Shown here piece after piece: positions 3,163-58,387 of a DNA stretch of 58,387 nucleotides. The notes under the pieces were generated by a model. The model ran no database searches and was not told the DNA's origin. It saw only the letters and a program-made list of their open reading frames with translations. Every line of letters starts with the position of its first letter. Position 1 is the first letter of the stretch. Source of the DNA: Stramenopiles sp. TOSAG23-6 (lineage: Eukaryota); contig LT635918.1 in NCBI GenBank assembly GCA_900128565.1, positions 1 through 58,387 of the forward strand. Reading direction: 5' to 3'. The position numbers and the translations under genes were made by a program.

Positions 3163-4394
3163 TTAATGTAGTGGGAGTAATGGCTCGGGTGGTTCTGGTG
3201 GAAATAAAGCATCTTCTCTATAAAATGATTTTTCATTTCCTCCGTTGTCCAAATTATTCAGAGGAAGGATAGGAAAGTCACTCGATAGTGGTGCTTTAAA
3301 AGCATTATGCCAATCAGTATTACCGGGTGTTTTTATTCGTTGCGAGTCATTGATAAAACCACTGAATCCTCTGATTGCTGATGAAGGATAATTCATCCAT
3401 GTAGGAAATTTTCCTGTTATTCTACCATTTTTCCTGCCATTTCTCCATCTACCAAAATTAGCTCCTGTCATCATTGATATGTATTGTGAAAAAATATGCC
3501 AAACTCAAAAAGTCTTCAAAACTCAATCAATACGAATTTGGTAGAAAAAAATATATATTTGAAATTAATGATGAAAATATACATATCATGTGCATCTAAA
3601 GAGCTTGGTGCCTGTTTTATAGGGAGCATGTTTTGTAGAATATAATTTGAGAAAGATCTAAGATTGCTACTTGTTTGTAAGGCAACAAATGAAGATCCCA
3701 CATTCGCCGCCACATTCTTGTTATCACCCGTCGTTTTTCTGTCTTTTACATTTTTTAGCTCTGAATGAAACTCAATATATGCTGATGGATTAAATGATGA
3801 TTTTTTTAATTGTGAGGGCACGGGGTGTAATGGATTGCGATAAAACCCATTTGGTTTGTACCCATGCATAATAAAAAGTGGCCCATTCGGGAGCAAAGGA
3901 GGGATTTTACGCACTGGCATTTGCTCTTCATCAATATGATGACGACCAGTATGTGGGTTATCTCCAAAAATAAAAGGCGGGGCGTGTGCTGGTACTGCTG
4001 CGGATAAACTTTCTGCTCCTTGACTACCCATATCTGTGTGTATATCAGGGAATCCGTTAGAACCACTAATACCTGGTTTGCCCCAACCTGCCATAGTTGA
4101 AAGACGATGTTTATTACCTGGGGTTGTTACAACAGGACTCCTCCATGGCGTATCCATACCTTGCCACGGTATAGACGCCCTACGAAGTTGATTTGGGCTC
4201 AAATCAACCTCTTCTACCATTGTTGTGACTGGAATGCCAATTGGATTTCCTGGAAGTGATCCATTTTCTGGGTTATAATTTGTAAATTTTATACTTTGAG
4301 TAAGTTTTGCAAAGAGTAAAATTATCACAAGTATCGATTTAGATTGAGAAAACATGGAAAGTAAGACTCTATATCTTCCATGAGAAGCTTTCAT
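3163..4394 (-). CDS. Pro/Gly-rich hypothetical protein, probably secreted; 2 exons (4394-3583, 3478-3163), 375 aa
   Basis: Hydrophobic N-terminal segment; ORFs 3516-4394 and 3163-3474 join in frame (..LDAHD-ISMMTG..) after removing 104 nt. Confidence 0.65.
3479..3582 (-). other. Non-canonical intron, family member (GTATAT...CAATACAT; equivalent AT..AC register 3481-3584)
   Basis: 5' GTATATTTTCATCATT, 3' ATATTTTTTCACAATACAT; removal restores frame; internal palindrome and branch motif degenerate. Confidence 0.75.
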
Positions 4395-21965: not shown

Positions 21966-22338
21966 CGTGTACAACTATTTGGCAAATATGTATGATGCTA
22001 TTCAATGACGGTCTTGATAAATTAAAAATAGTGGTAGCTACTTCTTTCTGAACAGAGGAGGATACACACTCACGGGTACCGAATACGAAGTACCGTCGTG
22101 TGCGAGCCGAGCTGCCCTTCAAATGGCATCCTGCTGAATTTCAATTCAGAATTTTGAAAACCAAAGAAAATTTTTCCCCGATATTTCGTGTTTGGTGTTT
22201 GACAGCATCAGATATGACTTCATGAAATCATGACTAACCAGTTTTTTATGTTCTTCTGTGTTAAACTCTTTGATTTTCAAGACTCTGTGTGTATTTTTCA
22301 AGGAGCTTCAAACATTCAGGGTATGCAACCGACTGAAA

Positions 22339-26445: not shown

Positions 26446-26774
26446 TGTTATAGCGAATATCTCTGGATTAGATATCGCTGGGATTTCGTGTATCGATAGT
26501 CTCGTATTCGAGTCTCGATATAATACAAATAGATATTGTATTAGATTGATAAATATATTGGCTTGATAGATATCAATATAGAATAAAGGTACTTAGTTTA
26601 TTCTATTATAATGTGTTGGAATATACTGGCTTGTTACTTGGTTTCGTATGTATATACCATAGACGAGAGACAAAAGTCCTCGAGTAGTCGAGTTGAAGTG
26701 TAACGGCATTAGCTCAAACGTTCTTAAGCTGGACAGACCTGTTCTTACGACCTGATCGCACACATTCTATAACA
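26446..26774 (-). repeat. 3' LTR
   Basis: No differences seen by eye from 35745-36073; TG...CA ends with 8-bp terminal inverted repeats. Confidence 0.95.
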
Positions 26775-26786
26775 CCCCTCCATACC
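26775..26786 (-). other. Polypurine tract
   Basis: GGTATGGAGGGG on the minus strand immediately before the 3' LTR. Confidence 0.75.
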
Positions 26787-26877
26787 TACATATATGTTGC
26801 TTCATATGTTTAGGTAGAGAATGTGTTGTTATAACTTTATAAAAGTTATTCTCGTACTATTTTAAATCTTAAATTTC

Positions 26878-26985
26878 TTAGGGTTAGGGTTTTAGAGATT
26901 GGCTTACTCTAGGGTTAGGGTTCGGAGATTGGATTGCTCCTTTGGAGATTGGATTGCCCCGTAGTATAGAGATTGGATTGCTCTA
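26878..26985. repeat. Short repeats in the retroelement 3' UTR
   Basis: TAGGGTTAGGGTT twice; GAGATTGGATTGC three times plus variants. Confidence 0.75.
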
Positions 26986-27267
26986 ATGTAGGAATGTTCA
27001 GAGTATAAATTTAGTTGACTTCTGAAATATAAATATTCACTTTTGGCTTAAGCGAAGTTCCTGGTTTATTCATTTTTAGTTTGAATGAATTGGCTCAGAG
27101 ATTTAGATTGCTCTGATGTATAAATAATTTTCACTTTTAGATTGAGTGAGTCACTTCTGGTTTAAGTGTACAGTTCCGTGTTATTAGGAATTGGATGGTT
27201 TAACATAAATATTATTAGTTATTTTACGTTGTATATGAGTTATTCTATAAGTATTTTTGGATTTGGA

Positions 27268-30200
27268 TTATATACTCATGAACATGTTTGAGAATTTTTC
27301 AAACTTTAATCTTGGTAATGACTTTGTAAAGAAATCGGCAATATTGTCATTTGATGGTACACGAATAATTTCAACTAATTCGTCATGACAACATTCACGC
27401 AGAAAAGCTACGCGTGTATCAATATGTCTTGATGCTCTATGATTTCTTACATATTTTGCATTGAGTTGTGCTGCTGCATTATCCTCATATATTGGAATGG
27501 CTGTGGTTCTAGTATATTCTTTGTTTGAAATGGAAGGATCTCCAAATCTATATCCTTTAAGATCTAAGTATTGAGCTTTTGCCCATAATGAATCGCGAGC
27601 TGCTTCAGTTAAAGCATATAATTCGCTTTCATAAGGTGATAAACAAACTATTGAAGTTCGTTTTGTTGACCAAGACACAAGGCAACCCCACATAAATACT
27701 GCATTGCCCATTAGGCTTTTGCGTTTTAATATTGGGTCGGCGAAATTTGCATCTGCATATATTTCAATTTCATTATGTCCAATTAATTTTTGTTGAACAC
27801 CATTTGACATAATTCTTGTTTCAGATGACTTTCTGCCATAAATCAGTCCTAAATCTCTTGTTCTTTTGAGATAGGTAACACAATGGATTGCTAAATTTTG
27901 TGAAACTCTGGTCGGTTTAGTCACGAATTGACTTAGATAAGTGAATGCGGCTTGTATGTCTGGTCGACATGATCCGGCTGCATAATTTAGTTCACCTACT
28001 ATTTGATACATTGATAAATTGGGAATTAACTTGTCTACAATAGTTTCTTCATTTGTAGAAGTTCGTAATTCTTCGGCTTTGAGTAATAGATTCATATTTG
28101 GAGGTAAAGGAGTAGCGTGTTTCTTTTCATTTGGTTCTAGTTTATAACCTAAAATTTCTTCAAGACCATCGACTACTTTGTCGATAAATGCAGGTATAGA
28201 CAATTTTATAGATTTGTCTTCATTTTCTGTGATTGATAATCCTACATATAAATTTGCATCTTTACCCCATAAGGTTGTACTATCGAATTTTTCTGTGAAC
28301 ATATCGGTGTGTGCTTTGATGATTTCTTTGCACCCACGAGTATAAATTGTATAAATATCATCGACGTATATCGAAGCAATCATTTTACATTCGGTTTCGA
28401 TTCCTTTGTCATTAGTGTATTTAACACTCTTAGATAATATGCTGGAATCTGTAGATATGGCTGTCCATCCTTGTTCAGTATACCAAGTGATGAGCATTCT
28501 GCGCCATAAATATCCGGCTTGTTTAGTGCCGTATAAACCGCGAAGTAATCTCCAACTCCATTTATTATGTGTATACGGAGTTTGTTCAAATATTTTTGCG
28601 AGCTCTGGATTGCTTTCGACCATTTTTGCGACTAACGATTTTCCTACTTCCTTTGGAAATGATAGATGTAATTCTTTATCTATATTTGCTTTTAAATATG
28701 CACCAGAAACATCTTGTAAAACTTGATCCATATCATGAGTTACGGCGTACGCTAATAACGTACGGATGTTTTGCATTCTGGCTACTGCACTGTAAGTTTC
28801 ATCGTAATCACGTCCTTGTATTTGATTATATCCTAATACAACTAATCTTGCTTTAAGACGTTCGATTTTTCCTAAATGATCTAATTTTGTTTTTAATACG
28901 ATTCTGGTACCAATTTTTGGACCTTTATAATCATATTCAATTTCTCCTACGCCATTATATATCATGTTCATTAATTCGTCAGTAATACATAATTGCCATA
29001 TTTCTTGATCTCTTTTGGGTAGTTTATTGAATTCGCGTGAGTTATTTGGCGTAATCCAATTTCTTAAATTTAGATGGCTTAAATCTTGGGATTTTGCACG
29101 AATTGTATCGCTATATTTTACTCCTCCATATCCGATTGTATCATTTGTAGATGTAGCAAAGGAGTTTGTTAGATAAGTTTCAGACATTCCTTTTGCTGTA
29201 GGCTTATTTATATATGATCGATTGGATATATTATCTCTTTGATGATGAGAATGTGTTAGATATGCATTTAATTCTGAGAGGGTGATTTCCTCTTCAATCA
29301 TATCTGGGTGTAGAATATTATTTGTAGCGGCATATAATGTATGAATAATATCATTTACATTATAAGAATAGCTATCATTTTGAGCCGTATATTGAGGGAC
29401 TATGTCGATTGAATTTTCGACAATTTTACTTTCATTTAAGTAGTCTGTTACTGCTGAATATACATTTACGTAATCTAATGATGCTGTATTTGAAGTAGCT
29501 GTATGTAAGGCGTATGCATTATTACATTCTGCTACGATTGTGGAATAAGTTGATTTTTCTTTTGATGATTGATCTTTAATATCATGATGATGTAACTTTT
29601 CCATGAACGGAGATTGAAAGTTTTCAATATAACTTTCTTGTCTGCTAAATATGTAATTATCTCTTCCACGTTGGAAGCCTCGACCTGTATAAGTGAGCCC
29701 GTAAATAGGTAAATTATTGCTCCAATAGGTTTCGGTATATTTAACATTATTTATATTGCCTGTAATCCGTCGAGTTACGGCTTGGATTTTATAACGATGT
29801 TGTATTTCATCGATTTTCTTCTCTTTAACTTGGAAATCTATAGGCTGAGATTGGAGCCTATAATTATATTCATCTCTTAATTCTGCAAAACGTTTCTTGC
29901 TTGCGCATCGATGTAATCTATTGATCCATTGCGATATGTTTTTAGTCCATGGTAAGGTTCTTTGTTTCATATGTAACTGTGCTGATTCGATGTCATTGTT
30001 ACACTTTTTACTGTGTTTTCCGAATCTATTTGTTTGTATTTCAGTGACAAACTTTGGCATAGATTCTGTTTCGTCATTGATGTTATAATGAATTACACTG
30101 GAGGTAAATGAAAAACTTACTGATTTATTGATTTTTGGACTCTTTGAGTTCTTAGTGGCTTTCGCCAAGCATGATGAAATTAATCTTTGAGGGATTTTCC

Positions 30201-32883: not shown

Positions 32884-35706
32884 TCAATCATCGATCTTCT
32901 CATCATTGTGATGAGTTGATGATGATTGGCCGAGTGGCGGGTCGTTGTTGCTGTCTCGGGTGACTTTTTCTTCAGTTTTGCTAGTAACTGAATGGGCGCT
33001 TGTAGGGATATTTCCCATAAATTTCATTTTATGGGCACGATCGCCTTTCATTGGGCATTTGCCTTGCTTGTTTGCTGAGCAAGGTAAGCCGTGTTTTTCG
33101 AATATACATTGTGCATTTTTGTCGTTTTTGACTCTGATTCCTTCGTCGTTCAAGTTATTCCATATACATGCTTCGTCTTTATGACCTTTTGCACAGATGC
33201 TACACTTTAGGGAATTATTTCTTTTTAATCCTTTGAACGGGCATTTTTCATTTTGTTTATGCACTTCGTTACATGTAAAGCACCGTCCGTTTTTGGGAAT
33301 TCCAAATTCTTCTGCGACTTTGATCATGCCACAACTGTTACAATCTTGTGGGTTGTTGCCATGTTTACATTTACCAGATTCGGTTAGATTTACATTTATC
33401 GGTTCTTCCGGCATTAATTCAAATCGTTTTTGGATTTTTGCATTTAAATTGGATACGTTAACTGATGAATAACATTCGATGTTTTCGAGGGCCCATGTAA
33501 TGTGTTGTATAAATGTGTTAAATGTCATGTATTCAGTTGGTACTTTGACTTGTTGAGCCATTTCAGTTGTGAACGATCCTTGTTTGAATACCTGTACGAC
33601 GGGTTTATATTTGTCATTTATTGAATTTAGATACATTTCGATAAATTCACCATCATGGTGTTTTTGAGGTAGTCGTATAGACGATATTGGGCGGATAAAG
33701 CGATTAACCATTTCAGCTGCTGTAGCTAACTTATTTTCCATATACTTTTTATTCGGTAAATTTTGCAATGGTTTAATTGATACTTCGGACAATAATCTCC
33801 ATATGTTGACAATGAATATATCCATGTCAGTTAATTCATCTATGGATTTTATTGGCATACTTGTTGTAAAATTTTCTACTTTCAATCTTTTTCCTTTGTT
33901 GGATAAAAATTTATAACATGGAGGCGATTTTATAGATCGAGCATGATGAGTTACAACGTTTTTATGTTGAAACGTTGTTGTTTTTCCTTTTGGGATATTG
34001 ACAAATGCTGTTGACGTTCTCCTGGCGGCTGTATTGATGTCATTTTTGCCTCCTTTCGATTCCTGTATTAACTCGTTAAGTTCTTCCAAAACTGTACCTC
34101 TTATTACTATTGATTTATCGAGGTCCGTTTCATTTGTTTCATTTGTTTCGATTTCCCCTGATTGGGCCTTTTGGACGAATTTAACGACATATTGGAGGAT
34201 TTCTTCAATTTCTTGACTGTCATCTGGTTTGTTGATTGAATTTGAGATTACTTTAAATCGTTTAGAAAATTCTTTTATGTCCTGCATTGGTTGTAATGTT
34301 TCGAGATTATCCTTCTTTAGGAGGAATGATTCTGTCCAATCTTGGGATGACATATGTTTAGGTTGACGTTCAGTTAATGACTTTAAACAATTACTGTATG
34401 TGGTTGCTGTTCCACACCCAACGACTTCTAGGATCTTTTTGTAGATTCCAGACACCGATGTGGCGTATTCTTTCATTTTTGAATGCTCGTTGTTTCCGGT
34501 CACTTGATTAAATAAACTTGTTTCCGTTGTGGTCCTCATGAATTTAATTATTTTCGACTTTAGGATCGCTTCGGCTGCTTTTTGTTTATTGATATTTTCG
34601 ATTGTGATTTTGTCACGATCGATCTGCTTGTCAGCGATTTTGATTTCGTCGTCTAATTTGGTTATTTCTTCATATGATTTCAGTGTTAATACAAGTTTTG
34701 CTAGCTTCGGTTGTGCTTTTAGTCGTTCACCGTCGAGGTGCTTTATTTTTCTTTTTATAGTGACAGTGTTTATTTTCTTATTGTCTTCCTTCAGTTCTTG
34801 GATGTCATCTCTTAGGTCTTGTCTTTTCATGAGTATATTTTCTATATCATGAACTAGTTCTATGTTTATGGAACTATTTTCGACCTCTATTGGGCTAAGT
34901 GGCCTTCCTTCAGGTATTGGTACAATTGTGGCTGCAACATTTTCCCTTTGATTTTCATCAGGAAATTCGTCTGCTGTTGGTGCAGGTAATGGTGGATATG
35001 CTCTAGCTGGGCGATTTTGTTCAGCTGCGGCTTCGGCTGCAGCTTCGTTATTTGGTTCAGCTGCAGCTTCATTATTTGTTTGGGCTGCGGCTTCGACAGT
35101 TTCAAATTCCGCATCGATGTCATCCGTTGTGCTTTCTTTTGTTTCAGAATTAACTAGATTATCGTTAGCTTGTTCAAGGTCTCTGATTTGGATTTCTTTT
35201 CTTCGAATTTCGATTTTATTGTCTTGCTTGGCGTTAAGCTTATGTTCAAGCTCATGGATTTTGCTTTCCAACTTTTGGATGAATAATTGCTTTGCTTTGC
35301 AATCCGCTTCTGTCATTGTTTGGCTTTGAGCATTTTCTGCTTTTAGCTTTTCTTCGATCTTTTTCTTTTTGTTTATATTTATGTTTTGTTGATCGATTAG
35401 TTTCCTTTGTAGGTTGGTGACTTTGGCGGCATCTTTTTCTGTTATCCAATGGTCTTCATTTTGGAGTATTGACTCTTGATCTATAGTTTGGTAATCCGTG
35501 TTTGTTTCTTTCACAGCATTCTTAACAAAATGTCGAACTTGAGATGACCAGATGGAAGTATATCCTTGATTGTTTCGCGACAATTTCGGTTTTTGTGGAG
35601 AGTTTTTCTGTTTCCCTCCTGTTCCTCTGCCTTTACTTTGAGCAGAGTTAGCGTGAGCTTTTGATGCTCTCTTCTTTGAGCGACGTTTCCTGGGTCGCCT
35701 CTTCAT
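32884..35706 (-). CDS. gag: Gag polyprotein (about 940 aa)
   Basis: ATG at 35706, 38 nt after the 5' LTR; basic N-terminus, coiled coils, C-terminal Cys/His knuckles CFTCNEVHKQNEKC and CSICAKGHKDEAC. Confidence 0.85.
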   Translation of the reverse strand: MKRRPRKRRSKKRASKAHANSAQSKGRGTGGKQKNSPQKPKLSRNNQGYTSIWSSQVRHFVKNAVKETNTDYQTIDQESILQNEDHWITEKDAAKVTNLQRKLIDQQNININKKKKIEEKLKAENAQSQTMTEADCKAKQLFIQKLESKIHELEHKLNAKQDNKIEIRRKEIQIRDLEQANDNLVNSETKESTTDDIDAEFETVEAAAQTNNEAAAEPNNEAAAEAAAEQNRPARAYPPLPAPTADEFPDENQRENVAATIVPIPEGRPLSPIEVENSSINIELVHDIENILMKRQDLRDDIQELKEDNKKINTVTIKRKIKHLDGERLKAQPKLAKLVLTLKSYEEITKLDDEIKIADKQIDRDKITIENINKQKAAEAILKSKIIKFMRTTTETSLFNQVTGNNEHSKMKEYATSVSGIYKKILEVVGCGTATTYSNCLKSLTERQPKHMSSQDWTESFLLKKDNLETLQPMQDIKEFSKRFKVISNSINKPDDSQEIEEILQYVVKFVQKAQSGEIETNETNETDLDKSIVIRGTVLEELNELIQESKGGKNDINTAARRTSTAFVNIPKGKTTTFQHKNVVTHHARSIKSPPCYKFLSNKGKRLKVENFTTSMPIKSIDELTDMDIFIVNIWRLLSEVSIKPLQNLPNKKYMENKLATAAEMVNRFIRPISSIRLPQKHHDGEFIEMYLNSINDKYKPVVQVFKQGSFTTEMAQQVKVPTEYMTFNTFIQHITWALENIECYSSVNVSNLNAKIQKRFELMPEEPINVNLTESGKCKHGNNPQDCNSCGMIKVAEEFGIPKNGRCFTCNEVHKQNEKCPFKGLKRNNSLKCSICAKGHKDEACIWNNLNDEGIRVKNDKNAQCIFEKHGLPCSANKQGKCPMKGDRAHKMKFMGNIPTSAHSVTSKTEEKVTRDSNNDPPLGQSSSTHHNDEKIDD

Positions 35707-35729
35707 TGTGCTCGCTTGGGTAGTCTCTA

Positions 35730-35744
35730 GCAAGTCTTATAATC
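35730..35744 (-). other. Primer binding site, half-tRNA type
   Basis: GATTATAAGACTTGC abuts the 5' LTR with no TGG; its complement GCAAGT-CT-TAT-AA-TC looks like a tRNA anticodon arm. Confidence 0.55.
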
Positions 35745-36073
35745 TGTTATAGCGAATATCTCTGGATTAGATATCGCTGGGATTTCGTGTATCGATAGTC
35801 TCGTATTCGAGTCTCGATATAATACAAATAGATATTGTATTAGATTGATAAATATATTGGCTTGATAGATATCAATATAGAATAAAGGTACTTAGTTTAT
35901 TCTATTATAATGTGTTGGAATATACTGGCTTGTTACTTGGTTTCGTATGTATATACCATAGACGAGAGACAAAAGTCCTCGAGTAGTCGAGTTGAAGTGT
36001 AACGGCATTAGCTCAAACGTTCTTAAGCTGGACAGACCTGTTCTTACGACCTGATCGCACACATTCTATAACA
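35745..36073 (-). repeat. 5' LTR
   Basis: 329 bp, matches 26446-26774. Confidence 0.95.
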
Positions 36074-36282: not shown

Positions 36283-37336
36283 TTATTTTCCAGAAGGTAC
36301 AGCTCTAATCTTATCAATTGGACAAGTGCCATTTGATAATAACCACGGATCAATGCACGCAGCGTGAAATTGATGAAAACATGTGTTGTGAAAAAATATT
36401 TTAGAAAAAAATCGTTAGGTACGTAATTTCGTATGAAAACAAAAATGAAATGCATCATGAAAATATACATGGAAGCCTCCGGACTTCTTCGCCAGGAAAC
36501 ATCTCTCCAAGACAAATAGCGCATTCGTCATTTTTGTCATTTTTGTCTTTTATTTTAGGTGTATCGACAGTTAGATCACACACTTTGCCACAACTACCAT
36601 CCTTGTTTCGTTTTCTACTTTTGGGCAGCATTGCTAATTCGCTCTTAGTTAAACGATTTTTATTCACTATGTTGTCATCAAGTCTACTTAAACGAAAAAA
36701 ATCTTCCTCTGATAATTCTCGACTCATTAATGATAATTGTGAGACTATATGTGATCGCAGTCCATTAAGGAAATTTTGATGAGTTCGGTTAGGTCTGCTT
36801 ACATGCGGATGAGGTCGAGTGTTATTTCTACTCGAATTATCGATATAGTCTTCCAAGTCTTCATCAGATTCGTCAGAATTAAAAAACACACCTAAACCTG
36901 CTGATCTTGAGCGTGACTCAAGTCTAATCCTTTGGAGGCGACTCAAACTTCTACCAGCATTGGCCTGAAGGATTCTATTTCTTTGCTCTTGTCTGGATCT
37001 TTCATGCTCTTGCCTTTGTAGTGAACGTGCCATGGCAGCATCAGCATCAAGTTGTTCTTCCAAGGCATTTCTATTACTATTTCTATTCTGCACAGAAGAA
37101 CGCCGATTCAATCTTGGACTACGACGAAGTGGGCTTGAAGATGGCGGAAGCAAGATCACATCTGGTGAGGAATTCGTGCGACGTCGCTTTTTTGGTCTAC
37201 GGACTGCAACATGTTGTTGGTTTGACGATGAAGACGTCGACACAGAGTTACTCGTAGAACGCGTACGCCGTCGACGTCGATTAGATTCTTTGGGAGAATC
37301 ACCACTCAAATCTATCACACTGTCAGCATTACTCAT
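36283..37336 (-). CDS. RING-H2 E3 ubiquitin ligase; 2 exons (37336-36469, 36380-36283), 321 aa
   Basis: After removing 88 nt it reads [42 protein letters not shown]; SIM-like VIDL/DVILL and UIM-like DAAMARSLQ in the N-terminal half. Confidence 0.9.
36381..36468 (-). other. Non-canonical intron, family member (GTATAT...CAACACAT; AT..AC register 36383-36470)
   Basis: Splits the RING motif; flanked by direct repeat CATGT; contains TACGAAATTACGTACCTAAC; no AG until after the remaining RING ligands. Confidence 0.9.
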
Positions 37337-37692
37337 TGCCCAAAATGTATTATTGCTCTCTCTATATTTCTTTGCATTATATTTTCGCAATCACTCAAAT
37401 CAAATTGAATAAATTATTTATAATAGAGGGAAGACAGGTAATCTATCTAAATCAAGGCAGTTTACTTATTTTCAGATTCCAATTAATTTTTGCGATTTTA
37501 TTCAAAATGATGGATTTATAAATTTTGAGCCGTTTGCGTTTGGGTTTGCCGCGAAATTTGAGAGTCAATTTTTGATGGACATCACCCGACGTTTGACAAC
37601 TTTTATTGGTGCCTACGAGAAGAAGTTCAGGGATTTCAGGCTTTTCAGCTCTCTTCTTCCCTCGTCCCGAGGATATCACAAAAGCTGGAGCT

Positions 37693-40600
37693 ATGATCAA
37701 ATTATATTCAGATTCTCGTTCTGGTGTAGAATGCATAGATAAAGGTGAGTTTGCATTATCGAAGCTCAAAAAGTTGTGTGAAAAAGTGCGTATGAAAGTG
37801 GATAATGACTGGTACGTTCTTGTTATGTCACACCCGATTACGAAAGATGAATCTGAAGCTGAATCTCAACAAACAGTATTACCTAATGATTCTTCAAAAT
37901 GGATAGAAGGTGATCACTTAGATGTTGATTTCAATGGCACTTTTTATGGTGCTAAAGTTCTGAAAACGGTGCCCACGAAACTTTGGGTGAAATATCTCGA
38001 TGGATCTAGAGAAGGAATCGTTTGGGAAGATGTACCGGATCGTGTAGAAAAACGTAGATTAGAGGTATCCTACCATTGTGGCTCTAAAACGTTTAACAGT
38101 ATTAGAGATGTAATGCAAGAATTATCGAAAAGAAAATCTTCCATTCACAAGGAAAATTCAAGTGATAGTTCTAATTCAAGTAAGAGCTCAGCAAAAAACG
38201 CAACCAAAAAAAAAGCAAGAAAAATACAAAGTAAAACGAACGCAAATGGTAAGAAGAAATCAAAAGCATTTGACAAGAAACAGTCAAATTTATTCTCATT
38301 TTTTGCATCTCCAACAAATCAATCGAAATTAACAGAGTCAGAGATGAATAAAGATGTTGATGATGACGAGCAATTCGGAGGAAATAATAAAGATGTTGAT
38401 GATGACGAGCAATTCGGAGGAAATAAGAGAAAAAGGCGAAAAATTAATTATTCAGAGGTAATCTCATTATCCTCAGACGAAGAAGTAGTTTCAGAAAAAG
38501 TAGTTTCAGAAGAATCTGAATTTGAAGAGGTTGAGGAAATAATTTCTGAAGAATCTGAATTTGAAGAGTTGGAGGAAATAATTTCTGAGGAGGAGGAAAA
38601 TGATGACTTCGAAGAAGATTCGGAATTCGGAGAGAGAGTTCCTAAAAAGAGAAGGAAACAAAGTAATAAAAATAAAAACTTGTCGAAAAATAAAAAAGGA
38701 AAAACCATGAAAACAAAGTCAACGAATGAAATTTCGGATAAATATGTTCAAGTGGATTCGAATGACTTATTTGAACTATCAAAAAAACGTTTGAAGAAAG
38801 AAAAGGATGCATTACGAAAACGAAAAAATGCTCGTAAGGCAAATGATCCTCTAAATCAACGTGGAAACAAAGCCGATTCTGCCATTCAAGACGGAGGAGA
38901 GTATTTCGATCCAGCAACATTACAAGGCGATATGTCGTCTCTTCCAGTTGAAGTTTTAAGACGACAATTTGTTACACTTTGGCCTCTCCTTTCGAAAGCT
39001 CAAAAGAATGGTGATTTTGTATTTGAATATGGAAAAAGCAAAAATTTATTCGAAGGTATCACTGTGCAGACTGCATGTAGTGGTACTGATGGCCCAGTCA
39101 TTGCACTACAGATATTCAAAGAAATTGCTACCGAACTCCGAAAGCGTCAAGAGACACTTTGTGGGGAACATTGGAAATTTGATTATCAACACGTTATGAG
39201 TTGTGAAATTGTTCCTTTCAAACAAGCTTATCTTGTTCGAAATTTTGAGGACGTCAAAGTGTTTGCTGATATCAAAGAAATTGCAAAGAGTGAAGCTAAA
39301 ACTGCATTTGGTGGTACTGTTTCTGTTCCCAAGGGGAATTTTTTCATGGCTGGTACATATATGTTTTATTTTTTTTCAATTTCGAGTTTTATTTTTTTTC
39401 AATTTCGAATTTATTTTTTTATAAAAATTTTTTACCTAACAAATTTTAGGGTTTTTTTTTTGAAATATTTTTCCAAAATACATCGTGTAAAGATTTTTCG
39501 ACTTTAAGAACTTCTGGTAAGTTAGATATGCTTGAAAGTAAAGGTATTAGTGGTGAAACATTTTTTGCTGCGTGTGAATTTATTTTTAGTCAGGCTCAAA
39601 ACTGGATAATATTTGAAAATGTTGATGGTGCACCATGGGAACAGATGGAACAGTACATCACTGGTCGACTTCCATTGTGGAGTCTTTATGATAAAGCAAA
39701 AAGTGGAAAAAAATGCGGAGATCTTGAGAGTACACAAAATAAATCGAAAGAGAATTCACAAATTATGTTTACTTTAAGCCAAGACGGTCGATGGGAAACA
39801 ACTCATGTTCCTCCAAAGAACGGTTGTCGACTTGGTGGTATATTATATGCAATTGATCGTGGATACACTCAACGTGGTCATACCGCTGATGGTTCGCCTA
39901 TTAAGAAACCTCAACGAAGGCTTGTTGAAAAGGAAAAGGAAATTGAAGTTGGGACAACGATGACTATCGAACAATTAGCATCTCACTTAGATTGTGAAAT
40001 GACATTAGATACATTTGTTTTTGAAGGACCAAAAGATTTATTAACTGGAGAAATAGTTTTTTATAGATCGCAAGTCGTGAAATGTGATACAAAAGAATAT
40101 GGTTTACCACAAGTTCGTAGAAGAAAATATATGTTTGTATATAGATTAGATTGGGTAGCTGACATACAAGATGATTTAGATGAAGCAGGAATAGATTTAG
40201 GAGAACTTTTTGAAGAATTAGTAGAGTGCATGCAAGAACCCGTCAATTATGCTCTTACAGCATATGTACCAGATGATACCGATCCTAAAGTTCGTCGTAT
40301 GAGAGATAGACTACGTGGTCCAGTTGGGCGTAAAACTGCCCGAGATGAATTGCGTAATAATTCTTATTATTATAATCTTACAGCAAACGTGAAGCACGGT
40401 GTTAAAATGCGAAATGATTGTAATTTGATTGAACGTTGTGATAAAGATTTTTCAACAAAGCCAATTACGGGATGGGGCGAAAGAGGTAAATCAAAAAGTA
40501 TCATGTATAATTTATGGCCTTGTATGTGGGATACTGTAATGACTCAAAGACGTCGAGATATGATTGATATTTTTGCGATGAATCAATCTGCTCCTGTTGT

Positions 40601-43600
40601 ATTAAAACACTCAGATAAATGCCACGATTCTTTACATACAGGTTATATATGGGATCTTTCACAAAATGCTACAATTACGACTCCACATCCTGCAACACCT
40701 GGTTGCTCTGGTTGTATTACTCCAGCTGGATTAAGTTTCCTCCCACAATTTGGTCGGATGCTCACTGGTGGAGAAAAACTTGCTTTCCAAGGTATTCCTA
40801 TTGATCGACTTCAACTAGGACAAGAAACAGAAATGCAACTTGGTGATTTAGCAGGTAATGCAATGAGTTTGACTGTGATTTCTGCGGCAATGCTGGCAGC
40901 TCTTAGTGTAAAACAATTTGCAAGAGAGAGATTGGCAAATAAGAAATTTCTACTCAAAGAACCTGTCCCTGAATTATTAGTTACGACAACATTTGCACCC
41001 CCTGAAAAAGATAAAAATGTGACATATCAGAAAGACTCAAAAGAGTTAGATGCAGTATCCTCTTTCCATGATATAGCAAAACTTGCATATGAAGCAGAGT
41101 CCGCTTCCGTATTGTGTGTCTGTGAAACAAGTGGTGGTTCATCAGCGTCTAGTATATTGCGATGTTCAAATTGCAATTTCACTTTTTGTAGATCATGTGC
41201 GTCGCGTGGCCTTGATTTGGCATGCCACAAAGTTTGTGATTATTCTGTCATGCATCCAACCGAAACATCCACTGCATCTGCAGGAAATAAATCTCGAATT
41301 GGATCTGTGAGTTTCGAGCAGAAATTACGTTGTGCAGCACCATCGTGTCTTTCATTACCATCTAAAACTGAAGCAAAACTTATAGGTAATTCAGATCTTT
41401 CGGATTCTATATTTTATTTACGAAAAGTGAAACGCAAACGTGGATTTTGGGAGTTAACGTATGTTGCTGCTGCTCAAACAGGTCAACTCCTTGGAGATTT
41501 TATTTGTTGTGTCGGTCGAGTTCCTGAACTTTCTAGTGAAATTTCTAATTATGGTATGACTGCGTATGTACGTCTTTTCCCAAAAGGTAAGCGTGGTATT
41601 TTACCTCCCGTTGTTCGCCGTCACTTTGTTGTCGATGACTCTGGAAATATCAAACCTTCAACTTGGGAAACACGAAATTCATTTTCTCTTCAAGTTGAAG
41701 TCAATGGATCCGAACCTACTCCATCGTATAGAAAGACCATGGGAAATAAAACATTTCAGACAGGTACAATGTCTATTTGGCCTAAATTGATAGAATTTAC
41801 TGTTACAAATATGGAGACCAAAGAAAATGAAAATGAATATAATCTTTTGAACGATAGAATATTTAAACGATTAAGCTGTAAAGGTACAATAAATCAAAAT
41901 GCAATTTGGCAAAGTAAAGCAGATTTGAAGAAAAAAGATGATATTGAACTCTTTATTTTAATAAGACCATCTAGCAATCGGACCAGTCGTGTCAATATGA
42001 TTGTCTGTAGTTCTCGTGACTATCATAGGCAGGGAAGTTTACTCGCCGAATTCCCCACTACATTTATGCCAGAAGTCATATTATCTCCTGACAAATTTGA
42101 AAAATTCGCTGATAAAAAAGAAGAAATCGAGCAGAAATCTATTGCGTCATTCTTTACTGGTAAGGTAAGTTCAAATACAAAAGGAAAAAAACGAAAGTTA
42201 CCACCGAAAAAGAAAAAAGTAACAGATCGTTTAAAGATTAGCATGGCAGTACTGCGTGGAGGGACACAACGTGTGACTACATACACATGGACCAAGACAC
42301 CTCAAATTAAGTTCATTGCTCCACCTCAATCTCTAAAAATTAGTGGGCCTAAAGATACTTCGATATCTGGATTAGATGAATTAGTTGTTTCTTTAGTCGA
42401 AAGTATTCCGTTTGGTACGATGAAACATATTTCAGAGCCAACACGCATCGAAGAATTAATGAGAACAGGTAGTAATAATGATCAATTTATTATTTTTATT
42501 AATGGCACTGGTGGAACTGCATCACAAACTAGACATCGATTTGCTGATTCATTAACTGCTCCACTTTTACAGTTTTCTGCAAAAGGAAAAGGTATCAAAA
42601 GTATTAATTCATGGCAGGTATTAAAACAGAAATCAAATGACTCTGATAATTGTGGTCAGTGGGGCTTAAATACTATATATTCGCCTAAACCACCTGTTGC
42701 CGAATTTTGCAAGGTTGTTACAAGAAATAAAACATATTTTGAGCCAAAATATGATGGTATGGGAAGTAATGAATATGAAAAAGCCCTGCGCGCTGTTCCG
42801 GAACCTTGGCATCTTAAAGTTGATATGGAAAAACGAGTAATGGAAATTGTTGCAAGCCCGTGTGTTCCTTGCCATCAAGTTGCAGCTGATCTTCTTATAG
42901 GTCGTCATTTTACTGCTGCTGCAAACGTGACTGTAGAATGGAGAGTATCAGGATCAGCAACGGAAACAATAATCACTGGTACTACCACTGCTGATGTCGC
43001 ATCGACTTCAACTTTCAAAGTCCCTACATCATCAAAATATGTTGAAACAGTTCCACAAGATTGTAAAACACCAGACCAATTTGTTGGTAAACATCCAGTT
43101 ACTGGAGATCCTTTGAAACTTTTCCCGCGACAAGAACTTGCGTTAACTCGTATGGTATCTATGGAATCAGGTAATGTTTATTTTACTGAGAAAGAGTTGA
43201 GACAAGTTCCTTTCCGAGGTTTGCCGTCATGGGTTATGGAAGCAAAAGCATCAAGGAAAGTTAAACTTAGAGGTGGCGTACTTGCGGACGTCATGGGTGG
43301 TGGAAAAACTGCGACTATAATTGCTTTGATTGCTCGATCTTGTGAAGAGAGTCGTCGAGAACGAAAAAGACTTCAAGAAGAAGGCAAACCATGGGCAAGC
43401 TCTGCAACACTTGTAATTGTACCACCAAATTTAACTTCATCATGGCATCATGAAGTGAAGAAATTTACACGGGATAAGCTTGCTATGGTTGTTATAGACG
43501 ATACTGAAAATTTATTAAAAATTACTAGAAAAAAACTCTGTGAAGCCGATATTGTAATCGTAAATATGGCTATTCTTATTGATGGTTCCGGTGATCTTGG

Positions 43601-45219: not shown

Positions 45220-48200
45220 TCATAGAAATGACAATAGTGATTTCCCTGTTGCTCCAAGTGCACTCCGTCGCAGTGCTTCTCCTGGATAAGAATTGAACCA
45301 CCCCCCACTACCTTCAGATGTATCAGTTTCATTGAAGCCTGGTGCGCGAACTTGGTTATGAATAGACACAATTTCAAATGCAGGATTAAGCAACTCTAAG
45401 CCAGCACATTGCAAACGTCTAACCATTACACCATCTCCCCGAAGCATTCCTAATTGAATATCTCCCGAGTTTTCAAGTACAGATTTGCAACCAGCTCCAT
45501 CACGTCGATGTGTGTACTGTAATGGATATCCATCTAATCCAATAAACTCCGTTGAATTAATATCTTGTGGTTGAGGAATTTCAAATGTTTTCAAAAGTTT
45601 TGGAGGTAATGGAGGAAATACAACCCACGCATCCTGGGAATCAACACGTGGCCATAAAATTTTTCTGCCTTCATAATTAAGTTCCCAATGTACAAGTGAT
45701 AAAGCAGTATTTTTTAGACGATGACGCGGAATTTTCGATAACTTTGACAAAGAAAGATCAAAATAAATATCTGCATTAATCAGAATAGCCGCTTGATTTT
45801 TTAGATGTTCCTCTGCATACCGTAAGGCATCACCAAATGATATGTGTTTTCCAATCGGAACGTGGACCAATTTATCGAGACCTCGATATTTTCTACTAAA
45901 AGAGTGGAATTCTTCAATGTTGATGTCTTTAGTAGTGTTGCCTTCGCTTAAGACATGAATATTATATATAAATGGATTTAAAGTGTTATTGCGCAATGCT
46001 TCGTCTAACTCTCTTTGTCTACTTTTTCGTTTAGGGTTATAATATTGTACTATTAAATGCACCTCAAGACAGTTTGGCTGATCACTATGAATGACATCAT
46101 CTCGACAAACATGGTGTACATCAGTAGAGGTGATTTCATTGTCTTCATTCATTCTGCTTTGCACTAGCGTTTTTTCCATAGTTTCCCTAATATTTTGACG
46201 TCGTTTATAAATGTCACGAAATAACTGATCAATAGCGGCATCTCTGTTTTCGAGAAAATCTGGTACATTTTCTTCAACATTATTTGCCGAATTATGCAAC
46301 ACATATTCATTATTATCTCTTGTATAGTTAAAGGATTGACCATATAAAAATGGAAGAATAGAATCGGTTTGCAAACTACTCCAACAATGACTCATTGCAG
46401 ACAAAAGACCCGACCACTGATTTTGCAATGTATAAATCATAGTTGCCAATGAACCATCACCATTACTGTGAAGTAGTTTTGCACCTCTACTATTTCCAAA
46501 AAAGTTAGAATCATTTTGTATCTCATTTAGTAAAATCAGATCTATAGATGGAGCCCTCCACTTCACCAAAGCAAGATGGATTACTATCATAAACTCTTTT
46601 TCATTAAAAGCTTCAAGGCTTACACCCATATATTGTGAAAAATATTCCAAATTAAAAAACTTGTTAGGCACGAAACCTCTACATTAAGTTGGGTACAAAA
46701 AAAAATCTGAAATTAGTACTGAAAACAAAAAAATCAAAAGGTAGTACTGAAAACGAACATTAACCTTGAGAAAGCTTTCACATTTTGTAATCCGAGATCT
46801 GAGTTAGATGCAATCGATAAAAGTAACCTAGCAATAAAAAAACTTATCGATTCGTCCTTTGGTTCACCATCTAAATTCCATTCANTNGNTNCNANCTGTT
46901 TTTTTTTNTATGAANATTTNCATCACAAAAATCTCTCCCATGACATTGATCTAATTTAGTATCGTTGTTGTCTTCATATTCTTCATATTCGACTTGTGCA
47001 TATATTGCACTCAAATACCGTTTCACCAAAAGATCACTACAAAGATCAACTCTTTCAATAAACGGAGTTCCTGTTTCATATACTATATTACTTGTTTTAT
47101 TGTCTATCTCATAGTCAGTCAAAGCAGATAAATGACCACCATTTGTATATAACCAGAGCGCTTCTTCGTGTGTAACAATTGACTCAGAAATACGACGCTG
47201 TGCCATTAAATTCCATCCAATTAGACTTAATAGTTCAGCAAGTTGAAGTCTTACTCCATCAACAACATCAGTTATATTATGCAGATATTCAAACCCACCG
47301 TTAATAAACTTAGCAGCTCGAGTTTGATATTTTTTTAATTTCTTAATAATTGTTCCATAAGTAACATTGTATGAATTTGATAATGATTTTGAAATGTTGG
47401 GTAGTCTATCCAACAAAATGGATAAGCACATTCGAGCATCATTGTATCTACGATGAGTGGAGAGGATTGAAGACATTTGAACAATTCGACGAATTTGTGA
47501 TCCAACATTTTCTAATTCTTCTTCGATGTTTTTTTTCTTTTTTGAATTCAATATTATGTTCGAACGATCAATCTCTCGTCGTATAAACTCATTTGATAGT
47601 TTTGGAACATTTGGCAATTTTCCATGTGAATGAACTATTCCAGACCAACTGATTTCAGATTCACTTCCCCATCCTAGTGTATAATATTTCTGTATCGATG
47701 CTGCTAGTGATTCAGCATCTACACTAAATGTTACATTATTTGATATTTTCGTTTTGTTTTCTCTTAAATCAATTGGTTTCATACTTTTAATACCATCTAA
47801 ACAGACTAGACACTTACCTCTAGAAATTCCAGGGGACCCACAAGTATTGTGAAAAAATATCTCAAAACAAAATCGTTAGGTACGAAATTTCGTATGAAAA
47901 AACAATTTAAATTAGAAATTCATATAAAACATACTCCATAAACCTTCAGCGTCAACAAACGAAGACAACCATGGATCAATTAGCATATACAATGATTCAT
48001 ATTTTTTATGTGGCCCATGAGCATTCGATGTAATGTAACTCATCCAAAATTCATTTGGATGAATATTTGTATGCTTGGGTGGTTTATGAATTTTACCCGT
48101 GGAACTTTTAAATGTTTCTGTTGGAGTATTTTCTGTATTTATATAATTTACAAGCCATGAACGAAATTTATGCCATGATGAAACAGTTGGCGAAAATCCT

Positions 48201-49692
48201 CTAAAACTTACTCGTTTGTTGAATTGTGTTCCTTGAGGAGTCGCCATCCACAAAACTTTATTTTTTTCAAAATATTCTTTCTTTGTATTTGCATTTATAA
48301 TTTGATGCTTTTCATCTACAGATTTTGCAACATTTGCACGAAGTTTTTTCCACTTTGAGTTATCTAAAGTCCAATCTTCAGGATTTTCGTCATTTAACAA
48401 ACCAGCGATATGAGTGCGCGAATAGTTGACACCTAATCGATATAACTCTGTGGTAGATATACATATATTGTGAAAAAATATATTTTTTTATAAAATTTGT
48501 TAGGTACGAAATTTCGTACGAAAAAAAAACTAAATTTGAAAAAAAATAAAACATCCGCTTACCTTCTACAAAATCTGGACGTGCTCCATTTGGAAGTAAC
48601 CCTAAGAAACCAAAAACATGAGGAAGTATTGTGAAAAAATATATTACCTTTGAAATTTGTTATTTACAAAATTTTGTACCAAAAAAAAATAAATTCAAAG
48701 TTGATTGAAATACAAGAGCAAAAAAAATATTAGGTACAAAATTTCGTATGAAAAAAAAATCGAAATTGAGATGAATGATGAAAACAAACATTACCACCAT
48801 ATGCGTAATGTTCCGCTATGAGCCATTGTGCAAAATGTGGCGAGACTCTCATTTCACTACTCAAAAATATCATCGGCCAACTTGAAGTGTCAGGTTGATT
48901 GAAAATAGTCAATTGATTATCAACCCATTCAAGGACTTCTGTTGCTGATAAACGTGTCGTGTCAGTACTGAGTGGAACTTTTCGAATATATTTTTCTCCC
49001 CATATCCATTTTATGTTTTGAGTATTTCGTATAAATTTTTTTGTACCCACATCAGATATTGAGTTTATTTCATATATTGTAACACATAAGTGCACAGCAG
49101 GAATGTTACCATACTCTGCATTGTTCAGTGAAACAAGTAGGCTATTTAAATCTTCCCAGTTGTAGTCAGTAATAATTATGTGAATTAATAGTCCAATAGA
49201 TGGATATTGATTGACCAAAGGGAGTTGAGCTGATAGAGGCCAATATGAAAATTCAACTGTTTGTGATTTTTGAATATTCCCATACACTGCCATTACAGTA
49301 AACAAAAAAAAACCTCCCGTGGAAGGTAGTTCAAAAGGCAAAGTCTTTTTATAGTCCATGATATCAGTACTATTAGGTGACTCCGTGATATCGGTATTAG
49401 GTGAAAATGGTGTTGGTAAACAGTCTACATAGAGCGATGTTGCGTGATATACATCTCCATCGGCACTATTCACGTTAATTTGCCGCAGACGTACACAAAG
49501 ATTTTCTATTTCAACGTCGCTGTCCCCAGAAAAATGTCTTCTTACTTTTGCTTTTACAAGGACGGACGGAGAAAAGAGTAAGGACAAATTTGATGGACTC
49601 CGTATTTCTACAGATTCAGAAATACTTAAGGTTGCACAGTTCTTTACATGAATAAACACTATCAATAAAGTAACTAAATATATGTAACGCAT
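45220..49692 (-). CDS. Large signal-peptide protein with glycosyltransferase-like domains; 6 exons (49692-48790, 48623-48557, 48462-47935, 47841-46922, 46883-46759, 46678-45220), about 1333 aa
   Basis: Four ORF-track fragments join in one frame (4002 nt total); N-terminal signal; GT-A-like LLVSLNNAEY..EMRVSPHFAQW; C-terminal LIVQYY..RQREL..INADIYFD..SQDAWV. One junction lies in an N-rich patch. Confidence 0.6.
46679..46758 (-). other. GT-AG intron with family-like 5' end and branch region (80 nt)
   Basis: AT|GTTCGTTTTCA...TTTTGTACCCAACTTAATGTAG|; joins ..FSRL-I-GFVPNK.. in frame. Confidence 0.65.
46884..46921 (-). other. N-rich patch, probably a collapsed family intron
   Basis: Begins AT|GNAAATNTTCAT (family: AT|GTATATTTTCAT), ends in T; removal joins ..DFCD-EWNLDG.. 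in frame. Confidence 0.45.
47842..47934 (-). other. Non-canonical intron, family member (GTATGT...CAATACTT)
   Basis: 93 nt, contains an in-frame TAA; perfect TACGAAATTTCGTA followed by CCTAAC. Confidence 0.8.
48463..48556 (-). other. Non-canonical intron, family member (GGATGT, or GTAAGC at 48562, ...CAATATAT)
   Basis: GTACGAAATTTCGTAC palindrome plus CTAAC; either donor keeps the frame. Confidence 0.75.
48624..48789 (-). other. Non-canonical intron, family member with duplicated core (GTTTGT...CAATACTT)
   Basis: 166 nt; two copies of the palindrome/branch module; joins YGGN-PHVFGFLG in frame. Confidence 0.78.
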
Positions 49693-57290: not shown

Positions 57291-58332
57291 TCATACTGCA
57301 TCAATGTGAAATATAACTTTCCCCAAAAATGAAGATCCAGAAAATATACAAGTGAAAAATCCCACAACAAAGAGAATAAATGAAAACAATAAAACCTTAC
57401 TTTTTTTGCGTCGTCCTAATTCTTCTATTAACTCCACAGTACATGAATGGTTACGAAATCTCTGTGGTTCAATCATTGAAGATTGTTTAGGTTCAGTATG
57501 AGCCCATTGCCAGACAATCTTTGACGGTATAAAGAATATAACAATCATACCAATACTCATTGCTGTAAGTTCAAATAAAATGTCAAGGTTTGGAATGATA
57601 AATGCAAATAATAAAGATGTTGTCCAAAATAGTATTGCGGAAACATAAAAGAATGCTGTCGGGATTTCTTCTAAAATTGCTGCTTTAGTTTCATCCATTT
57701 CTGCTTCCTCAGCTTCAAGTAGTGCAGCAGTTTGCATAGCAACAGCTGTGTTTGGACTCAGTGGACTCGTCATTGCTTCTACGTCATTATTACTACTTTG
57801 TAAAAGATTGTCATTAACAGGATATACTCCATACATTGGATCATGATCCATTCCATTTGCTGCAACCATGTAGTGTAAAAAGATATTTTAAATTCGAAAT
57901 TCGTTAGGTACAAACTTTGGTACGAAAAAAAAAACTTCATGATGGAAACGTACAAAGGCATTGTTTCAGTTTTCTTATAGAAAAAAGGCTTGAGAAGAGA
58001 AAATAAAGCAGAACGCGCCGGGAAATGATTGATCGGAAATTGTGAAATCATAACTACAACTAGAGCTATCCGAGCTACATCAAGTGGCCAAATACTGTAA
58101 AAAAATATTTGAAAAAAAATCGTTAGGTACAAAATTTCGTATGATAAAACAAAATAAATTCGAAATCGAAAAAAAATAAAACAAACAACCTCCAATATTT
58201 CCATAGCCAGTTGGAAAAGAGTTTTTTAAAATATTCGTTTTTGACGTGGAACCGAATTCGATGTAACCCAAAGATGCTACTAAAGCATATAACATCACTT
58301 GAAATATGATAGAATAAATAATTACTCTGTCC
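57291..58332 (-). CDS. Amino acid transporter (Aa_trans/SLC38-like), 5' part outside the window; exons 58332-58187, 58089-57954, 57867-57291
   Basis: YALVASLGYIEFGSTSKTNILKN, QFPINHFPARSAL, IPNLDILFEL..IVIFFIP; fragments join in frame after removing family introns. Confidence 0.8.
57868..57953 (-). other. Non-canonical intron, family member (GTACGT...CACTACAT)
   Basis: 86 nt; GTACCAAAGTTTGTACCTAAC; joins ETMP-L-VAAN in frame. Confidence 0.8.
58090..58186 (-). other. Family intron (GTTTGT...CAGTATTT); an in-frame GT-AG alternative (58095-58182) also exists
   Basis: 97 nt; TACGAAATTTTGTACCTAAC; joins NIGG-WPLD. Confidence 0.7.
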
Positions 58333-58387
58333 ATGTATTTTGGAAAAATATTTCAAAAAAAATCGTTAGGTACAAAATTTCGTACGA
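58333..58387 (-). other. 3' part of a family intron (...TTCCAAAATACAT), truncated by the window end
   Basis: GTACGAAATTTTGTACCTAAC; the last 24 or more nt match the DNMT5 intron 3' end. Confidence 0.8.

Follow-up and report, generated by a model that had tools for sequence, protein, structure and literature searches.

The intron that interrupts a RING-finger gene in a 58,387-nt stretch of the genome of Stramenopiles sp. TOSAG23-6 ends in AT and not in AG, as do other introns of the same stretch, which raises the questions of what these introns are and how they are removed. The stretch, hereafter the window, is contig C433 of an incomplete assembly (G000; 21.1 Mb, 6,236 contigs). A preliminary description regarded the introns as introners, i.e., copies of a non-autonomous DNA element with GTAT...ATAC ends that is flanked by a 2-bp duplication and spliced out together with one copy of it. 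We consider it probable that they form an introner family removed by a major (U2-type) spliceosome that has co-adapted with it.

The features on which this analysis is based are listed in Table 1. When the intron of the RING-finger gene is excised in silico, the RING-H2 finger is complete; when it is retained, a stop codon follows after LPCIFS, four residues on. The exon upstream of the intron weakly matches positions 1-17 of the 29 positions of zf-RING_11. This copy has no RNA coverage, and its removal is judged from the reading frame. It had been put forward as an example of GTAT...ATAC ends, which does not hold: its real end is ACAC followed by AT, and two of the four terminal pairs match when counted inward.

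Table 1. Introns of the family in the window, parts of the intron in the RING-finger gene, and a canonical intron for comparison
Position	Strand	Feature	Basis or remark
36381..36468	-	Family intron, 88 nt, GTATAT...ACACAT, phase 1, in RING-H2 finger	Removal restores frame
36469..36471	-	Exon end CAT (left AT dinucleotide copy), complementary to U1 nt 9-11 (AUG)	Sequence, U1 alignment
36463..36468	-	Donor hexamer GTATAT (family consensus GTAYGT)	Sequence, family alignment
36420..36433	-	Palindromic family core, consensus TACGAAATTTYGTA, just 5' of branch motif	Sequence; arms without covariation
36414..36419	-	Branch-point-like CCTAAC, predicted branch A at 36415	Family conservation; branch use putative
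36381..36396	-	Conserved 3' end TTTTTTCACAACAC plus acceptor AT; right dinucleotide copy at 36381-36382	Sequence, family
36469..37336	-	Host RING-finger gene, upstream exon	Open frame
36283..36380	-	Host RING-finger gene, downstream exon; completes RING finger, runs to stop codon	Joined frame
3479..3582	-	Family intron, AT/AT; longest inverted ends in the window (4 pairs inward + 6 outward)	Removal leaves 282 + 105 open codons
39359..39483	+	Family intron with AT donor (ATATGT), AT/AT, TACAT repeat, in SNF2-domain gene	587 + 1878 open codons
46628..46758	-	Family intron, AT/AT	
47842..47934	-	Family intron, GA/TT	95.7% identity to a copy on another contig (L011)
48463..48556	-	Family intron, GC/AT, GG donor	In-frame AG|GTAAGC 6 nt upstream (48562), a possible alternative donor
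48624..48789	-	Head-to-tail twin: 48714-48789 (AT/TT) + 48624-48713 (TT/TT, CTT repeat, 5 terminal pairs)	
57868..57953	-	Family intron, TT/AT	
58090..58186	-	Family intron, TT/TT	
58333..58387	-	3' half of family intron, AT end	Truncated at contig end
L037 8182-8284	+	Non-family canonical GT-AG intron	AAG|GTAAGT donor, TACTAAC branch

In the nine complete copies of the window, all flanking pairs reported in the preliminary description are present, with AT/AT found four times and not three. The AT/TT pair was also correctly given, and the copy carrying it turned out to be a head-to-tail twin and not a single copy. The statement that the right dinucleotide is always AT or TT is true for 9/9 in the window and not for the family, as other dinucleotides occur among the 174 copies analyzed below. 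Longer direct repeats were confirmed (CATGT at the 36381 copy, TACAT at the 39359 copy), as was the extended inverted repeat reported for 3479-3582. The twin leaves 302 + 77 open codons only if all 166 nt are removed, and the first four exons of its host gene join into 803 codons without a stop. Another head-to-tail pair with no exon between its members is found at L009 (1350-1454 + 1455-1545), and such pairs imply recursive or twin splicing. The SNF2-domain gene split by the 39359 intron is large (37597-45119, plus strand), and from its motifs we take its N-terminal part to resemble a cytosine methyltransferase (DNMT5-like).

The family core, TTYGTACCTAAC, has 9,674 exact matches genome-wide, compared with 13 for a control pattern; because the assembly contains duplicated and palindromic contigs, raw copy counts overstate the number of distinct loci. 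In about 1 Mb of sampled sequence, 176 copies were defined from 308 anchors, and a family profile gave 323 matches, leading to 186 complete copies. Removal restores the coding frame, with 25 or more open codons on each side, in 174 of the 186, and these 174 were used for the flank and donor counts. The consensus reads GTAYGTTTT, a T-rich spacer, TCGTACGAAATTTYGTA, CCTAAC, another T-rich spacer, GAAATATTTTTYCAMAATAC and two variable bases, with TTTTYCAMAATAY as the fixed 3' end of the element. The element is approximately 97 nt long (88-122 nt in 90% of copies) with 20% GC, and the conserved CCTAAC lies 33-47 nt before its end in 90% of copies. As expected of introners, the similarity between introns of unrelated genes extends beyond the splice signals: mean pairwise identity is 0.74 compared with 0.60 for shuffles, and nearest-neighbour identity has a median of 0.87 and a maximum of 0.97 (n=161).

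As to orientation and location, 171/176 copies are in sense orientation to the longer reading frame, only isolated cores occur in non-coding gaps, and none of the 147 strong 3' ends in 850 kb belongs to a long copy. The palindromic core alone, with neither donor nor 3' end, was seen in such gaps at L047 ~1960, L116 ~1060, L133 ~8765, L044 ~5300 and L080 ~7190. In some copies (L090 ~570-665, L100 ~7270-7370, L130 ~1965-2090 and ~2580-2700, and L138), TTAGGG/CCCTAA telomere-type repeats directly follow the donor; these could mark healed breaks. Gaps between long same-strand frames in 850 kb (N-containing gaps left out) contain the family in 92 cases and lack it in 36, and among nine of the latter that were examined there is one clear canonical AAG|GTAAGT...TACTAAC...ACAG intron and one possible one. 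Since a clear intron of this kind was found among the family-free gaps, canonical introns persist in the genome as a small minority. The canonical intron at L037 is probably ancestral. As part of the whole explanation that we prefer, one element family would, with good probability, now supply most introns of the genome.

Identical flanking dinucleotides let the cut slide, so the splice register is decided by unequal pairs. A polyA metatranscriptome contig (run X1, record 5; 1,404 nt, depth 11.4) maps to L122 at 340-1082 and then at 85-237; it skips exactly the predicted copy at 238-339 and keeps the left C of the CT/AT pair. It departs from L122 again where the next family copy starts, and its 12 differences from G000 in 896 nt (~98.7% identity) indicate another strain. 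It is the sole junction-bridging RNA contig among the matches listed from four runs, with none for six other family copies of L122, and it is also compatible with a 1-nt slide (TG...CA) or an element-free allele. A contig from run X2, which is perhaps unspliced, covers 6 nt of an intron end. The window sequence itself is present in seawater metatranscriptomes (X1 share 0.22). In the GMP synthase gene, keeping the left CT of the intron flank yields PGPG, whose P and G are each present in 119/120 homologues, and a 2-nt shift would give H. Based on this proline and the one RNA contig, the introns are read as GT...YNN, mostly GT...YAT. Two earlier claims are thereby borne out: the element is removed with one dinucleotide and the protein stays unchanged (174/186 copies, X1 contig, GMP synthase homologues), and the right copy serves as the acceptor (left C kept in the X1 contig, left CT in GMP synthase). 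At the Myb, MFS, SET and ClpB junctions, the register was tentatively read from protein motifs. Stop codons in the two registers numbered 3 if the right copy stays and 0 if the left one does; this comparison was discounted, as the choice of frames had presupposed the left copy. On L122, about a thousand contigs per run from two RNA libraries fall on element bodies, and the exons have a depth of 2-20; the contigs may stem from summed repeats, intron retention, stable intron RNA or DNA.

The YAG acceptor of U2-type introns is rare in the family. Genome-wide, strict 3' ends (n=4,380) are followed by AT in 3,568 cases (~81%) and by AG in 155. Among the 174 copies, the right dinucleotide is AT in 140, TT in 13, AG in 7, GT in 5, AC in 3, CT and AA in 2 each, and GA and TG in 1 each, and the donors are GT (156), AT (10), GC (4), GA (2), GG (1) and AC (1). 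Changes away from the AT/AT pair lead to AG in 5/12 cases, which suggests that AG is still a good acceptor.

The flanking dinucleotides had been interpreted as a target-site duplication, and a locus-specific 2-bp duplication indeed exists. Left and right dinucleotides are equal in 124/174 copies (permutation mean 97.5, maximum 111 in 20,000), and where neither side is AT, 17/22 pairs are identical compared with 6.8 expected; AT/AT pairs account for 107/174. The excess asked for by the locus-specific duplication test, as given in the available text of Gozashti et al. (PMC9860276), is thus present in this family. It is limited to positions -2 (137 vs 112.6) and -1 (145 vs 139.5, p 0.009); in one control, the two exon bases further upstream agreed with the right pair slightly more often than expected (18 vs 13.4, p 0.03), and a second control showed no excess. 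The preferred target is C|AT|G: among the 107 AT/AT copies, C precedes in 47 (17 expected) and G follows in 55 (27 expected), with phase-matched exonic AT sites as controls. Of 55 left flanks other than AT, 33 have AT on the right, which plain duplication does not predict. These left copies had been thought to drift, a view that the data do not support: departures from AT are spread evenly over codon positions, with no surplus at the third, and 12 of the 33 depart from it at both bases. The left CT in GMP synthase specifies the proline that 119/120 homologues share; the right copy is AT although this target cannot have been AT. Therefore, the right end is in many cases an AT supplied by the element or one that arose by correction. 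Older copies show a trend toward more broken duplications (p = 0.08).

According to the explanation that we prefer, a short non-coding element would have spread to thousands of coding sites, bringing with it the donor GTAYGTTTT, the branch motif CCTAAC and a fixed 3' end. It would have been inserted at the DNA level by a nuclease making a 2-nt staggered cut, preferably at C|AT|G, and the dinucleotide following it, either a target copy or the element's own AT, would have become the acceptor. The inverted GTAT/ATAC ends, considered as a signal in their own right, do not add to this picture: the match is one of 4 bp in the consensus, with all four terminal pairs in 44 and three in 88 of the 174 copies, and no excess complementarity was observed at any of 14 positions. 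Because these ends coincide with the donor (GTAYGT) and acceptor (YAT) signals, they cannot be told apart from splice signals. They are also shorter than the terminal inverted repeats of at least 6 nt by which MITE-type introners are defined in the available text of PMC9860276. The core dyad or hairpin showed no covariation in 8 pairs (n=164).

A partner that could mobilize the element was sought among long copies and a Harbinger-type element, and no autonomous element with matching ends was found there. The two-gene Harbinger-type element (C2432/2433/2439/2440) was rejected, having its own 25-28 bp GGCC repeats and a TAA duplication. Between the convergent genes of this transposon lies a 35-nt family core without ends (L222 1055-1090, G000:C2432; the contig is present four times). 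The genome also contains two Tc1-type transposase genes (C304 and C2340) and another transposase gene on C4153. The window holds a full-length copia-type LTR retroelement (26446-36044, minus strand) with two identical 300-bp terminal repeats, a 950-aa frame and a 1871-aa RVT_2 frame separated by a single stop codon, and no family intron inside. A 285-aa frame at 536-1393 (minus strand) has no Pfam match at E 0.01; by eye, we take it to resemble a transposase-type helix-turn-helix protein. Thus, of the proposed non-autonomous DNA element, what stands is a mobile intron (introner) family, and what is not supported or not proven is its terminal repeats, which show no covariation, and an autonomous partner.

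The same introns and the same U1 could also have arisen by an RNA route, which we regard as a possible, second-best account. Excised intron RNA ending in YAU would enter genes by reverse transcription, or mRNA by reverse splicing; at a nick, the AU at its end would anneal to AT, and the duplication would be microhomology resolved to either the AT of the RNA or the target. Such a route fits an element that equals the intron exactly, terminal repeats without covariation, a right AT at non-AT targets (33/55), complete copies that are sense and genic with only isolated cores in non-coding gaps, twins in the same orientation (L009 and 48624-48789), the hundreds of RNA contigs that pile on element bodies, and the intact-looking copia-type reverse transcriptase in the window. 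However, the 17/22 identical pairs among doubly non-AT flanks require target copying, and the symmetric C|AT|G target suits a dimeric nuclease. Moreover, long non-coding gaps amount to only 61 kb out of 850 kb, which leaves selection as a sufficient explanation of the genic and sense bias, and DNA signatures are found in most introner families (PMC9860276, available text). We therefore favour movement at the DNA level over RNA with moderate confidence.

How the donor is recognized was examined from the spliceosomal RNAs. The only U1 found (41/253 candidates scored) begins with ACGUACAUG compared with the canonical ACUUACCUG; at length, its 5' end reads AAACGUACAUGG vs the Rfam consensus AUACUUACCUGG. 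The two substitutions, U5 to G and C9 to A, are both at pairing positions. The gene is full length (G000:C1146:349-508, E 7.5e-12) and has a second copy on C6122; its score of 54.1 bits is below the Rfam gathering score of 69.5. It forms one cluster in the order U5-U2-U1-U4 on C1146 (again with a second copy on C6122), and U6 is located on C3740. In standard U1 pairing, the two changes shift the target from CAG|GUAAGU to CAU|GUACGU, and the recoded U1 is complementary to the family junction CAU|GUACGU, exon-side letter included. In the 174 copies, position -1 is mostly T (151; G, 7), and position +4 is mostly T (88) or C (80) and rarely A (3). Family junctions match the recoded U1 at 7.13 of 9 positions on average vs 5.86 for canonical U1, the fit being better in 157/174 and worse in 4. 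Copies with weak exon pairing show no significant compensation at +4 (p = 0.14). The commonest donor hexamers are GTATGT (60/174) and GTACGT (57/174); the latter is the perfect partner of the recoded U1, and the former presumably that of the unchanged U6 ACA box. For the intron at L037, just 6 of the 9 positions can pair with the recoded U1. The recoded U1 explains part of the left-hand CAT preference.

The U2 branch-pairing box (GUAGUA), U5 loop 1 and U6 ACAGAGA are all canonical. CCTAAC of the family pairs with the U2 box, and the GT donor pairs with U1 and U6 as in U2-type introns. Judged from these gene sequences, the matches suggest that the splicing machinery has adapted to the invading introns. 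In our preferred explanation, an ordinary U2-type spliceosome would excise GT...YAT (also YTT, YAG, YGT and YCT), leaving the protein unchanged; its donor side would have adapted through the U1 changes U5 to G and C9 to A, which fit CAU|GUACGU, and the choice of acceptor would probably depend on the branch point and on the element's conserved 3' motif, not on AG. U1 would thus have come to match the junction of the invader; the U1 change may have come first and licensed the spread, or it may have come later.

On the acceptor side, U2AF35 was not found in one family search and three motif searches of the genome. Candidates on C270, C2773, C449 and C5 proved to be other proteins. A U2AF65-like gene with an RS region, two RRM1-like domains and a UHM is located in the window (20010-21974, minus strand) and is the best TIGR01642 match of the genome; its protein is most similar to a family of short U2AF65-like proteins with diatom members, and C4102 was rejected as U2AF65. 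The lack of the linker tryptophan in this protein is uninformative, as several green-algal and alveolate homologues also have F. In Prp8, the stretch 1493-1540 (human numbering), which we take to be the acceptor loop, differs from human at two positions only. Elsewhere in Prp8 (L065, G000:C84), near-invariant sites are changed: VD to CN (95/95 conserved each), S to A (109/109) and T to A (108/109). Given the long branch on which they lie, no conclusion is drawn from these changes.

A bolder and rather doubtful extension is that the family rewrote the AG convention to AT at both intron ends, with U1 AUG (nt 9-11) reading CAU at the exon end and at the acceptor, possibly together with loss of U2AF35. 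Cross-intron pairing between U1 and the acceptor was reportedly proposed for fission yeast by Reich et al. in 1992. If true, this would be a natural U1-acceptor compensatory pair across about ten thousand introns.

It is improbable, in our estimate, that the recoded U1 represents a minor variant, a pseudogene or a passenger and that splicing depends on a canonical U1 absent from the assembly, a situation that would resemble Fritillaria with its conserved U1 5' end and changed U2AF. Such a gene could be hidden, given that the assembly is incomplete (6,236 contigs) and 41 of the 253 U1 candidates were scored; the recoded gene scores below gathering, the persisting canonical GT-AG introns could need a canonical U1, and no family copy is located on the snRNA contig. 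Nevertheless, the recoded U1 lies between high-scoring U2 and U4 in the cluster with U5, on two contigs, and both of its changes match the family at pairing positions (C rather than A at +4, 80 vs 3; T rather than G at -1, 151 vs 7). A search of the incomplete assembly for the canonical U1 pattern gave one unrelated match (control, 2). In metagenome contigs, a U1 5' pattern had 0 matches. We thus infer that the spliceosome removing the family uses the recoded U1.

Removal guided by RNA structure and not by the spliceosome, as proposed for euglenid nonconventional introns, is very unlikely. The short inverted ends and the internal palindrome could serve such a process, but neither ends nor core show covariation, folding z-scores of six copies range from -0.42 to -2.04 (five of six not significant) with no shared end-pairing structure, and the standard donor and branch motifs are matched by U1, U2 and U6. 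There is even less room for minor-spliceosome (U12-type) introns cut two bases upstream. AT|GTAT...ATAC|AT can be read as AT...AC if the dinucleotides are identical; however, the X1 contig keeps the left C, the GMP synthase proline argues likewise, and position -3 (C 134, T 37, A 3) shows that AC is not invariant. The U12-type consensus consists of the donor RTATCCTT and the branch TCCTTAAC. In PMC5029451, the branch is given as ATATCCTT. The RTATCCTT donor is absent from the family, and neither U12 nor U6atac was found in the incomplete assembly. Finally, it is scarcely credible that the introns are old and alike only through strict splice signals, a view left some room by the lack of alignable genomic DNA from a relative (distant intron-free matches, 35-48% identity), given that the similarity spans the whole length with up to 97% identity between unrelated genes, that there are locus-specific duplications and twins, that relatives 76% identical have full-length GMP synthase gene calls on 7.3-kb metagenome contigs, an indirect sign of intron absence there, and that the canonical intron outside the family is wholly unlike its copies.

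In a FastTree tree of Prp8 (90/110 aligned sequences; 20 animal or oversize rows left out), the organism lies among marine sequences and groups with oomycetes and ochrophytes (support 0.996). Because a red-algal sequence is drawn into the same clade, this placement is only likely, and the organism is likely a heterotrophic stramenopile. A second, weaker small-subunit rRNA match at G000:C137:3115-4595 is probably organellar.

Several known systems resemble parts of this one; they are compared here as described in the available portions of the cited papers. Fritillaria borealis and F. pellucida, which belong to a lineage unrelated to this stramenopile, have non-canonical transposon-derived introns, most of them without a 3' AG (PMC13326754, PMC11282704). 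As in our family, AT is their commonest acceptor (34% and 44%), the acceptor triplet is repeated before the donor (YAY there, CAT here), and the minor spliceosome is absent or not found (PMC13326754). Their main donors are AG and their introns diverse, whereas one family dominates here, with GT in 156/174 donors and AT at ~81% of strict ends; their U1 5' end is strictly conserved and U2AF duplicated, whereas U1 is changed at two pairing positions here (PMC13326754). The U2AF subunits are duplicated and divergent there; one U2AF65-like gene was detected here. Introners of Micromonas, Aureococcus, Chrysochromulina and others likewise place many similar introns in unrelated genes with the mRNA unchanged, and those of Chrysochromulina also take the acceptor from the duplicated target, carry the donor and do not have terminal repeats (PMC9860276, PMC11282704). 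They differ in having AG acceptors, 3-9 bp duplications and just over 2,000 copies per family at most (PMC9860276, PMC11282704), compared with a 2-bp, mostly AT duplication and roughly ten thousand core matches here. The introner elements of Amoebophrya, another marine protist, are repeated non-canonical introns that form the majority (PMC7789003, PMC11282704), but they have variable duplications of 3-5 nt and real terminal repeats, and U1 is reported absent there (PMC11282704) and not retuned as here.

With regard to U1, the pairing arm fits the dominant donor in Entamoeba (ACAAAC) and Mastigamoeba (ACGUAC) as well, and the ACGUAC of the recoded U1 is identical to the Mastigamoeba candidate (bioRxiv 10.1101/2022.06.08.495308). 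The changes described in the available text of that preprint are in the intron-pairing hexamer only; here, in contrast, C9, which pairs with the exon, is also changed to A, in keeping with an AT target and an acceptor other than AG, and a single mobile family supplies the donors. ISL2EU elements (PHIS DNA transposons) share the 2-bp AT target duplication, which corresponds to AT/AT in 107/174 copies here, and they differ in their A|AT|T target, terminal repeats of 6-259 bp starting with GG and occurrence in animals only (PMC4482050, available text), compared with C|AT|G, a GT start and a 4-bp consensus match in our family. In the literature examined, which excluded most subscription journals, nothing was found on GT-AT introners or on an exon-side-changed U1 in a stramenopile. 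AT acceptors, U1 retuning and duplication-derived acceptors are each known; their combination, and an exon-side U1 change matching a transposon target, were not met there.

Few natural examples exist of how the spliceosome chooses the last two intron bases or of co-evolution between an snRNA and an invader. In this genome, near-identical introns in thousands of contexts vary mainly in their terminal dinucleotide, and U1 departs from the consensus at exactly the two positions where the family departs from the standard donor. Taken together, they allow a direct test of what U1 does at the exon end and perhaps also at the acceptor. The AT acceptors represent an independent origin outside tunicates, and standard GT-AG gene prediction would miscall most intron-bearing genes in this lineage.
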